From positions 48,127 to 112,126 of the forward strand of contig JBDHTQ010000007.1 of the NCBI GenBank assembly GCA_039808765.1: 64,000 nucleotides of DNA. The letters run 5' to 3'. The DNA comes from Bdellovibrionales bacterium (GTDB lineage: Bacteria; Pseudomonadota; Alphaproteobacteria; UBA2400). Within the stretch, counting starts at the first letter, position 1. Each line of letters opens with the position of its first letter. Under the pieces are notes generated by a model. It saw nothing but the letters and a program-made list of their open reading frames with translations, was not told the DNA's origin and did not search any database. This document shows, in pieces, positions 37,216 to 40,076 of this stretch. A program made the position numbers and the translations under genes.

Positions 37216-38538
37216 TTAAATCACTGGCTTCTTGTCAGCGAGAAAAGCGAGCACTTCCTCGACTGATAAAAGGTGTGTTTCGCTATTTGTGCGATTTTTA
37301 AGCTCTACTTTTTGCATCGCGCAATTACGTGGGCTAACAATCACTTGCCACGGCGAACCGATTAAATCGGCATCTGCGAATTTAACCCCTGCCCTTTCAT
37401 CGCGATCATCATAGAGGACGGAAATATTTTTTTCTTGGCACGCGAGGTAAAGTGAATTTGCCAAGGCATCTGTGTCTGTATCACCGTTTTTCAAATTGAT
37501 AAGGATAGCAAAAAACGGCGCAACCGACGCTGGCCAGATGATCCCTTTATCATCATGGCTTGCCTCAATAATGGCTGCCACAAGGCGCGAAACGCCAATA
37601 CCGTATGACCCCATCTCTAGAGGATGTTCTGTACCGTCGGGATGGGTCACTGAAGCTTTCATGGGCTGAGAATATTTTGTCCCAAAGTAAAAAATATGGC
37701 CGACCTCAATTCCACGGGCAGAAACAAGATCAAGATTTTTAACCATATCAGGATCATGCTTTTCTTCTGTTGCTGAATAACGCGCGGTCAGTTTTTTAAA
37801 GAAGGGTTCTAAATCCTCATTATAATGTGGAGCATCCTGCAATGCATCTTCTTCAACCCATGATTTGTCACAAAAAACCTGACTTTCACCTGTTTCAGCC
37901 AGAACGATAAATTCATGGCTCATCTCTCCACCGATGGGACCGCTATCGGCACGCATGGGAATAGCACGCACGCCTAATGCTGCAAATGTACGAAGATATG
38001 AAAGAAACATTTTATAATACGATCTCTTTGCATCGTCATATGTGAGATCAAAAGAGTATCCATCCTTCATCAGAAATTCGCGTCCTCGCATCAAGCCAAA
38101 TCGCGGCCGAATTTCGTCACGAAACTTCCATTGCATATGCCAGAAGTTTTTAGGAACTTCGCGGTAGCTATGAATATGCGTACGCACGATATCTGTAATC
38201 ATCTCTTCATTTGTCGGCCCATAAAGCATTTCGCGGTTTTGGCGATCAGTTATGCGCAACATCTCCTTGCCATAATCATCGTAGCGACCACTTTCGCGCC
38301 ACAAGTCAGCCGACTGTAGCGTTGGCATCAAAACCTCAATTGAGCCTGCGTTTTCTTGCTCTTTACGAATGATTGATTGAATATTTTGTAGAACGCGCAA
38401 TCCCAAGGGCAACCATGAGTATATACCTGCAGACATCTGTTGAATCATTCCCGCGCGCAACATCAGCTTATGAGAAACAATTTGCGCTTCCGCCGGATCA
38501 CTCATAAGAGTGGAAATAAAATATTCACTTCGTTTCAT
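37216..38538 (-). CDS. proS: Proline--tRNA ligase, bacterial (P-) type, short alphaproteobacterial form without the INS editing domain
   Basis: [67 protein letters not shown] 38538 overlaps the upstream TAA (TAATG). Confidence 0.96.
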
Positions 38539-40076
38539 TAATACGCTCTCCCAAAAATAACTTCGTACTGAGCGGGTCTTCCTGTGATAACGCATGGACC
38601 AAGTGCCCTTGATTGCTCAAAGGGAATGCAACGAATTGTTACTCCCATACTCTTGAGCAAATCCTCGACTGCTGCCTCATCACCACAGAAAGGAGCTTTG
38701 ACAAACCCTTGCCCGTTGTTAAAGCTTTTTTCTCCTGAAGTGCCGAAGTAGTTTTTAAACTCTTCAACCGTTTTGATGTTTGTGCAGGTTCTCTCTTTTT
38801 GAATAGCTAAAGCCTGTTGATATAATGTCTCGTGACAATGTTTCAGTTCTTGACTGATATCAATTTTATCCAAGGGCATAACGGCTTTTTTCTCGTCCAG
38901 ATTAACGCGACGTGTAAGCGCCATAGCATTATTTTCAACATCACGCGGCCCGATTTCAATCAGCAGTGGTACACCTTTTTTAATCCACTGCCAGCGTTTA
39001 TCTGCACTCGGATAGTCACGTGTATCAATTTTCGCGCGTACACTTTGACCAGCAAACGTTTGCGAAGTGATTGAGGCGAGAACAGTTTCGCAATAGGCCA
39101 TGACTTTTTCCTGATCTGATTCATCGCGCATAATTGGAATGATCACGACCTGTTGCGGAGCCACAGCTGGCGGTACACGCAACCCGTTATCATCAGCATG
39201 GGTCATGATCAATGCACCGATCAGGCGCGTTGAAACACCCCATGAGGTGGTATAAGCAAACTCAATATTCCCTTCCTTGTTTTGGAAAGAGATATTAGAT
39301 GCTTTAGCAAAATTTTGCCCGAGATAGTGCGACGTTCCCGCCTGCACCGCTTTACCATCCTGCATCATGGCTTCAATACAATAGGTGTTAACAGCGCCCG
39401 GAAAACGTTCAGACGGCGTTTTTTCTCCGGGGATAACAGGAAGAGCCAAAATATTCTCCACAAACTCCTGATACACATCCAGCATCTGTTTTGTTTCAGA
39501 ACGAGCTTCCGCTTCACTTGCATGAGCTGTATGGCCTTCTTGCCAGAGAAATTCAGCAGTACGTAAAAAAATACGTGGCCGCATTTCCCATCGCACAACA
39601 TTGGCCCACTGGTTGATCAAAATTGGCAAATCGCGGTAGCTCTTTGTCCAGCGCGCGAAAGCTTCACCGATAATTGTTTCGGATGTTGGGCGCACAATTA
39701 ACGGTTCATCCAATTCACCATCAGGCACAAGTTGGCCATCCTTATTGATCAAGCGATGATGGGTAACGACAGCCATTTCTTTGGCGAAGCCCTCCACGTG
39801 ATCCGCTTCCTTTTGCAAGAGCGACATTGGAATAAAGAGCGGAAAATAAGCATTTTCATGCCCTGTTTCTTTAAAACGCCGATCTAGGTCACGGCTCATG
39901 AGCTCCCACAAGCCATAGCCCCATGGTTTCATCACCATACAGCCGCGCACACCAGACATTTCAGCCATGTCGGCTCCTTTGATGACCTGCTGATACCATT
40001 CTGGATAATCATCGGCGCGAATAGGTGTAATCGCTGTTTTTTGTGATTTTACCTGTTGTTGCGTATTGGCAGACAT
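38538..40076 (-). CDS. proS: Proline--tRNA ligase, eukaryote/archaea (E-) type
   Basis: [86 protein letters not shown] and terminal FGRAY. Confidence 0.96.

Follow-up and report, generated by a model that had tools for sequence, protein, structure and literature searches.

The 64,000-nucleotide (nt) stretch of DNA analysed here, referred to as the window, comes from the genome of a Bdellovibrionales bacterium (assembly GCA_039808765.1, contig JBDHTQ010000007.1, positions 48,127 to 112,126 of the forward strand; Alphaproteobacteria, UBA2400 in the GTDB lineage). Its minus strand carries two complete genes for prolyl-tRNA synthetase (ProRS), which belong to different evolutionary types and overlap each other (Table 1). 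The upstream gene, proS-E, codes for a protein of the E-type, and the downstream gene, proS-P, for a short P-type protein that lacks the INS domain and that we call P1. Read along the minus strand, the gene order is nuoN, birA, RNase J, an open reading frame (ORF) for a membrane protein of 116 amino acids (aa), proS-E, proS-P, lolC and lolD. The sequence at the junction of the two synthetase genes is GGG AGA GCG TAT TAATG AAA CGA, in which the final A of the proS-E stop codon TAA (38540-38538) is shared with the proS-P start codon ATG (38538-38536). A Shine-Dalgarno-like GGAG is found 9 nt 5' of this ATG.

Table 1. Features of the locus in the window, followed by the genes of a further P-type lineage (P2) and the free-standing editing domains found in three related genomes (G001-G003)
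Feature	Position	Strand	Basis
proS-E, gene of the E-type ProRS (eukaryote/archaeon-like; 512 aa)	38538..40076	(-)	ORF, TIGR00408, Pfam
TAATG stop/start overlap, proS-E/proS-P	38536..38540	(-)	read from sequence
GGAG, Shine-Dalgarno-like, within the last proS-E codons	38548..38551	(-)	from sequence; putative function
proS-P (P1), native alphaproteobacterial short INS-less P-type, 440 aa	37216..38538	(-)	NF008979, P tree
lolC	35961..37202	(-)	ORF; Pfam FtsX and MacB_PCD
lolD (ABC ATPase), last gene of the four-gene block	35237..35968	(-)	ORF, synteny; name from context/similarity
proS-E upstream region, candidate operon promoter	40077..40367	(-)	weak sigma-70-like match
P2 gene of G001	L027:1501-2763		
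P2 gene of G002	L028:510-1787		
P2 gene of G003	L029:1492-2760		
Free-standing PF04073 domain of G001	G001:C79:172587-172958		
Free-standing PF04073 domain of G002	G002:C91:5032-5241		
Free-standing PF04073 domain of G003	G003:C37:45562-45936		

The four genes from proS-E to lolD are closely spaced, with the lolC start 13 nt past the proS-P stop codon and an overlap of 8 nt between lolC and lolD. A promoter/terminator scan found no minus-strand terminator-like site between proS-E, proS-P and lolC, although this is a weak hint as the counts in the scan were not above those in shuffled sequences. No Rfam element was detected in 34500-43000 at an E-value of 0.1 or better. An intergenic stretch of 235 nt lies 5' of proS-E, and a sigma-70-like match at 40367-40339 agrees with the consensus in 9 of 12 positions. 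The predicted membrane ORF between RNase J and proS-E (40312-40662, minus strand) has no Pfam match.

The genome to which the window belongs (G000) has a size of 1.94 Mb in 13 contigs and is 97% complete with 0.81% contamination. Genome-wide, it holds exactly one E-type and one P-type gene above the respective cut-offs. A preliminary description of this locus, made from the letters of the window, had proposed that reads be mapped across position 38538. We used Logan contigs as read-level evidence; their coverage is patchy, and no single contig extends across the whole stretch. A 310-nt contig of the public run X2 matches positions 38271-38580 with no mismatches and spans the junction, reaching 42 nt into the E gene and 267 nt into the P gene. 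It comes from a study other than that of the run which covers this stretch best. This stretch is found in metagenomes from wastewater and activated sludge, and none of the runs listed for it is an RNA run. Matches of 90-95% in X6 and X8 at 39474-39707 were discarded, as they represent conserved parts of genes of other organisms and not this locus.

The protein encoded by proS-E has a score of 487.4 bits against TIGR00408 (proS_fam_I, cut-off 437), which makes it a member of this family, and it consists of the class II core (PF00587), the HGTP anticodon-binding domain (PF03129) and the C-terminal ProRS-C_1 domain (PF09180). Its residues 14-512 align with the ProRS of Thermus thermophilus (PDB 1H4Q, 476 bits), which is also a bacterial E-type, and conservation between the two extends to the proline site, to the segments of motifs 2 and 3 and to the Tyr at the C-terminus. 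The protein ends in FGRAY, and the terminal Tyr is found in 82 of 82 aligned E-types. A more general comparison with 81 other E-types shows that proS-E keeps 162 of the 166 columns that are conserved at the level of 95% or more. Unlike 1H4Q, it has Cys at only two of the four aligned zinc-site cysteine positions (residues 464-498), which we take to be the four zinc ligands of the T. thermophilus enzyme. The two other positions are occupied by Cys in only 6 of 82 E-type relatives, and the missing cysteines are thus typical of the group. This conservation of residues suggests that proS-E codes for an active prolyl-tRNA synthetase.

The longest P-type ORF (37216..38595) would give a protein of 459 aa. 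However, the first position of the NF008979 profile aligns to the Met at 38538, and hence the 440-aa form is the likely product. Its score against NF008979 (PRK12325) is 696.3 bits with a cut-off of 550, and residues 1-431 cover positions 1-434 of the 437 positions of the profile, so that P1 belongs to this family. Pfam identifies the class II core and the HGTP anticodon domain. A short insert takes the place of the INS domain, and PF04073 is absent; the long-form profiles TIGR00409 and NF006625 match P1 in two separate stretches. The alignment with the ProRS of Rhodopseudomonas palustris (PDB 2I4L, 581.6 bits), which is an INS-less alphaproteobacterial P-type as well, is colinear and covers the full length, and the class II motifs are conserved. 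In a comparison with 105 further P1 sequences, 144 of the 151 columns with a conservation of 95% or more are retained in P1. For six sole-copy P1 sequences used as a reference, four of them from genomes no larger than 2.0 Mb, the corresponding range is 119-149 of 150-152 columns, and P1 falls within it. As judged from these comparisons, P1 is likely to be an active prolyl-tRNA synthetase. The preliminary description had presented the two genes as complete, overlapping and INS-less members of two different lineages with class II motifs that look intact. This is in agreement with our findings, as both proteins pass the cut-offs of their families, PF04073 is found in neither, and the motif segments are kept relative to 1H4Q and 2I4L.

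In codon usage, both proS-E and proS-P deviate less from the genome mean than do about 90% of the 778 long ORFs. The terminal branch of proS-E (0.21) is shorter than the corresponding branches in two metagenome-assembled genomes (MAGs), L030 (0.31) and L033 (0.37), whose E gene is a sole copy. Because of the native codon usage, the retention of conserved columns and the length of the E branch, neither ProRS gene looks recent or decaying.

We also analysed the tRNA substrates of the two enzymes and the editing domains. The genome contains a standard set of 44 tRNA genes. Its three tRNA-Pro genes (UGG, CGG and GGG) all have C1:G72 and A73, which is the bacterial identity set. No extra or anomalous tRNA was found among the 44, including a tRNA with proline identity and a non-proline anticodon that could form a pair of the ProRSx/tRNA-ProA type. 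As all tRNA-Pro species carry G72/A73, we read the two proteins as isozymes that act on the same tRNAs. In R. palustris and other Alphaproteobacteria, the INS-less P-type is paired with a free-standing editor of the ProXp-ala/YbaK type. The window's genome differs from this pairing: PF04073 (INS/YbaK/ProX) was found neither in proS-E or proS-P nor elsewhere in the genome, whereas free-standing copies are present in the three other genomes of the family (Table 1). Within the four genomes, the trans-editor tracks P2, the further P-type lineage described below, and not E or P1.

The arrangement of the two genes is rare. E-type ProRS as such is frequent among Alphaproteobacteria and is present in 57 of 401 evenly drawn genomes (56 of 400 without the unpublished G046), and 51 of the 56 E-bearing genomes have no P-type gene. 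One ProRS type per genome is thus the rule, as the preliminary description had assumed. The five genomes in which E and P co-occur are the window's genome, its relatives G001 and G002, and two others, G156 and G206. In G156, a P1-like gene (49% identity) is located 366 kb away from the E gene, and in G206 a P2-like gene (60% identity) is found on a contig other than that of the E gene. A P-type was not detected in five additional genomes with an E gene, one of which is that of L030. A survey of genomes for adjacent E- and P-type genes had also been proposed, and it turned out to be negative for all 240 other loci: 80 E-type loci (±5 kb), 80 P-type loci in genomes and 80 P-type loci in metagenomes (±3 kb). 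Hence, the arrangement is not common. Furthermore, a literature search did not find a tandem, overlapping E/P pair in a native operon with an INS-less P-type.

The closest relatives of P1 are alphaproteobacterial and 53-65% identical to it; none with an identity above 65% was found in genome contigs, metagenome contigs or 41 relatives. In 50 of 80 related genome loci, lolC is located downstream of the P-type gene on the same strand, and lolC is present within the ±3 kb flanks of 46 of the 80 metagenome P-type loci, where it was counted irrespective of strand and order. In the P tree, P1 falls within the alphaproteobacterial P1 clade on a branch of its own with no close donor. We also forced P1 into a clade with L174 and L188, which the lolCD and dnaE trees identify as the closest relatives that have P1. 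The resulting tree was not rejected and its log-likelihood was 18.1 units above that of the free quick tree (approximately unbiased test, p-AU 0.78). Since Alphaproteobacteria usually have lolC after the P-type gene and the position in the tree is consistent with vertical descent, P1 is best read as a vertically inherited gene that occupies its ancestral slot before lolCD. The earlier view of the short P-type as the native gene upstream of lolC is thus supported by the 50 loci of this order.

A separate observation concerns the short P-type genes of Gammaproteobacteria. The loci L172, L176, L179 and L181 (Dokdonella and Rhodanobacter) carry an alphaproteobacterial short P-type ProRS, and two of them, L172 and L181, nest inside the alphaproteobacterial clade (support 95), which suggests that the short form was transferred into Rhodanobacteraceae.

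The history of the E gene can be followed in the relatives. In the E tree, the genes of G000, G001 and G002 group together (support 99); those of the MAGs L030 and L033 join them (support 97), and all of these lie inside an alphaproteobacterial E clade of 27 rows (support 99). In G001, from a sister genus, the E gene abuts lolC, and in G002, also from a sister genus, it is located about 0.5 kb upstream of lolC. Neither genome has P1, and they have the rnj...lolC-lolD-dnaE synteny in common. The lolC gene of the window is 64-77% identical to those of G001-G003. In the outgroup MAG L030, the E gene is followed by two unrelated genes and then by lolC-lolD, and P1 is absent from the genome; the lolCD of this MAG is sister to that of the family (support 99). 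Because G001, G002 and L030 carry E at this slot, it appears to have arrived there before the divergence of the family. The identities of the E orthologues are 70-75%, so that synonymous sites are saturated, and constraint was judged from the retention of conserved columns and from branch lengths in place of dN/dS. A tblastn search for remnants of E, P1 and P2 in the E-lolC spacer of G002, the lolC-rnj gap of G003, the E-rnj gap of G001 and the region of the empty P2 slot in G000 (contig C3, 146500-147500) gave nothing better than an E-value of 0.08, apart from the ends of E genes that were deliberately included. The simplest history is one in which E was inserted beside P1, which was then deleted in several lineages and kept in G000.

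The preliminary description had offered a xenologous replacement caught in progress as one of its explanations. Its first part is supported by G001 and G002, which have E without P1 at the same slot. The second part, if it is taken to mean a recent event, does not agree with the data, as the E clade includes the outgroup MAGs L030 and L033 and both genes are ameliorated and conserved like sole copies. The reach of the E clade to L030 and L033, the native codon usage and the sole-copy-like conservation all indicate that the two-gene state is old, and it has probably been selected.

The E-type sequences contain a further case of note. The E-type ProRS of the contig L042, which is labelled Bacteroidaceae, is nearly identical to those of two gut alphaproteobacterial MAGs, L038 and L041 (branches of 0-0.015), and this is probably an error of labelling or binning.

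The family contains a third ProRS lineage. P2 is a further short, INS-less P-type that is present in G001, G002 and G003. These proteins have 421-426 aa and share 36-38% identity with P1, and they score above the cut-off of TIGR00409 and below that of NF008979. They belong to a large and mostly unnamed family found mainly in uncultured Alphaproteobacteria. The ProRS set is thus E and P1 in G000, E and P2 in both G001 and G002, and P2 only, with neither E nor P1, in G003. The P2 slot is conserved in G001 and G003 and is empty in G000 (contig C3, around 146760-147031). In G003, there is a 1.2-kb stretch between lolC and RNase J (L193:6641-7846) at the place where the relatives carry proS, and neither E nor P1 has left a recognisable remnant in it. 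The terminal branches of P2 have lengths of 0.27-0.30 and are alike in genomes with and without an E gene.

The most likely explanation of these findings, to which we assign a probability of roughly 0.65, is that the locus is one operon with two active isozymes and represents a preserved intermediate of an in-situ xenologous displacement. According to this explanation, proS-E, proS-P, lolC and lolD would form a single tightly packed operon. The xenologue proS-E would have been inserted directly upstream of the native proS-P in an ancestor that predates the family. Sister lineages would later have deleted the native P1, which would have brought E next to lolC, and the lineage of G000 would have kept both genes. 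The translation of proS-P may be coupled to the termination of proS-E via the TAATG overlap and the internal GGAG, and both enzymes would charge the same three tRNA-Pro species. The long retention of both genes under full sequence constraint suggests that each isozyme adds something that the other one lacks.

Xenologous gene displacement in situ, together with the mosaic operons that go with it, was reportedly described by Omelchenko, Makarova, Wolf, Rogozin and Koonin in Genome Biology in 2003. Similar to such a displacement, a xenologue is found here in the operon slot of the native gene, and the relatives have either the native gene only (P1-lolC) or the xenologue only (E-lolC). Unlike the usual displacement, which is inferred from its end states, both genes are still side by side and both are constrained.

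The coexistence of the two types has a precedent in Bacillus thuringiensis. According to PMC11229370, this bacterium has a P-type ProRS1 and an E-type ProRS2, which are both expressed and both active on P-type tRNA-Pro. BtProRS2 is more tolerant of heat, H2O2 and dithiothreitol (DTT), and the authors suggest stress or inhibitor tolerance as the reason for its retention; the same text gives the fraction of bacteria with an E-type ProRS as about 22%. By analogy with ProRS1 and ProRS2, tolerance of stress, inhibitors or proline analogues could be the reason why both genes are retained here. The two systems are alike in having one P-type and one E-type enzyme with G72/A73 in all tRNA-Pro, which in our case is known from the genes. 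The word "operon" does not occur in PMC11229370; in contrast, the genes described here are adjacent, overlapping and part of a putative native proS-lolCD operon. A further difference is that P1 represents the alphaproteobacterial P-type without INS, and that no INS/YbaK domain was found genome-wide. Both the coexistence of P- and E-type ProRS and the displacement in situ are thus already known, and the present locus is an instructive case and not a new principle.

Several findings weigh against the explanation of a preserved intermediate with two active isozymes in one operon. The sigma-70-like match is a weak one, and sites resembling promoters are not commoner upstream of proS-E than in shuffled sequences. 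P1 departs from its family at 7 conserved columns, which include R187A and Y133W. The X2 contig that spans the junction has a low depth (2.7) and reaches just those 42 nt into the E gene. The E-type enzyme alone suffices in the 51 E-bearing genomes without a P-type, and P2 is the sole ProRS in G003, hence redundancy without distinct roles is possible. Finally, the topology of the lolCD tree is (G003,(G000,(G001,G002))), whereas the dnaE tree groups G001 with G003 and leaves G000 and G002 unplaced. Because of this disagreement, the number and order of P1 losses, at least two if L030 is counted, are uncertain.

Some of these points would also fit a neutral redundancy that is slow to resolve, with interchangeable enzymes that have no distinct role. 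Apart from the E-only genomes and G003, which lives on P2 alone, this idea agrees with the presence of one gene at the lolC slot in every other surveyed genome and with the identity set common to all tRNA-Pro genes. However, the E clade is older than the family, so the duplicate state is old, and such persistence is not expected of neutral redundancy. Both genes are conserved like sole-copy orthologues, and three of the four family genomes keep E together with a P-type, be it P1 or P2. We therefore consider neutral redundancy somewhat unlikely.

It is also conceivable, but rather doubtful, that the E-type of this family never occurs without a short P-type partner that lacks INS, with P1 in G000 and P2 in exchange for it in G001 and G002, and that the pair forms an obligate, non-redundant system of two synthetases or a hetero-oligomer whose stoichiometry is set by the TAATG coupling. 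If the pair were obligate, one of the enzymes might add fidelity or tolerance of stress or inhibitors in a genome that has no editor of the INS/YbaK type.

A different origin of the pair would be the loss of P1 in the ancestor of the family and its later re-acquisition from another alphaproteobacterium, with insertion between E and lolC. Indeed, just one genome of the four in the family has P1, the L030 genome lacks it, and under the lolCD tree vertical descent requires three independent losses. Nevertheless, we regard this as improbable. There is no close donor, as the best identity is 65%, and the codon usage of P1 is fully native. The forced clade of P1 with L174 and L188 was not rejected and gave the better likelihood, and an exact re-insertion into the ancestral slot, complete with a stop/start overlap, is unlikely.

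The two enzymes could also split the work, by serving different isoacceptors or by one of them serving an unusual tRNA, like ProRSx, or having a non-translational role. The fact that two constrained copies are kept would fit this idea, and there is a precedent in Streptomyces, where, according to PMC9437257, ProRSx serves the unusual tRNA-ProA. However, the acceptor identity is the same in the three tRNA-Pro species, none of the 44 tRNAs is anomalous, and both proteins have canonical catalytic and anticodon-binding domains. The division of labour among tRNA-Pro isoacceptors, which the preliminary description had listed among its explanations, thus finds no counterpart in the tRNA set, and a split of work is very improbable.

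The probability is lower still that the coupled translation serves the assembly of an E/P hetero-oligomer, even though the stop/start overlap would give linked synthesis of the two chains. TAATG overlaps are common in ordinary operons. Besides, E and P2 are far apart in G001 and G002, and the two types are separated by the 366 kb mentioned above in G156, so that linkage is not needed for their coexistence. A precedent for such an assembly is the trans-oligomerisation of duplicated ThrRS, as reported in PMC4787780. Lastly, a junction created by an assembly chimera or a binning artefact, which one might suspect given a genome assembly of 13 contigs and a stretch known from wastewater and activated-sludge metagenomes, can be practically dismissed, because both flanks are syntenic with the relatives, the contamination is low, both genes have a native codon usage and an exactly matching contig from another study bridges position 38538.

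Two plus-strand ORFs are neighbours of the four-gene block and are convergent to lolD: 32101-33447 (448 aa) and 33655-35214 (519 aa). Their products have an N-terminal region in common, as well as a motif around "KIEI.GA.RRLQ", and they appear to be paralogues with no function assigned.

The replacement of essential translation genes by foreign homologues is common in the record of aminoacyl-tRNA synthetases, but it is almost always visible only once it is complete. If the locus is indeed a preserved intermediate, the stage with both genes has been kept in the native operon while the end states are found in the relatives, and this would provide a system in which the viable intermediate of such swaps can be studied. 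The locus also raises the question why one genome should sometimes keep two types of ProRS, with tolerance of stress, tolerance of inhibitors or proline analogues, and fidelity in the absence of an INS/YbaK-type editor as the candidate reasons. Furthermore, with P2 included, three interchangeable solutions to one essential function may be compared among close relatives.

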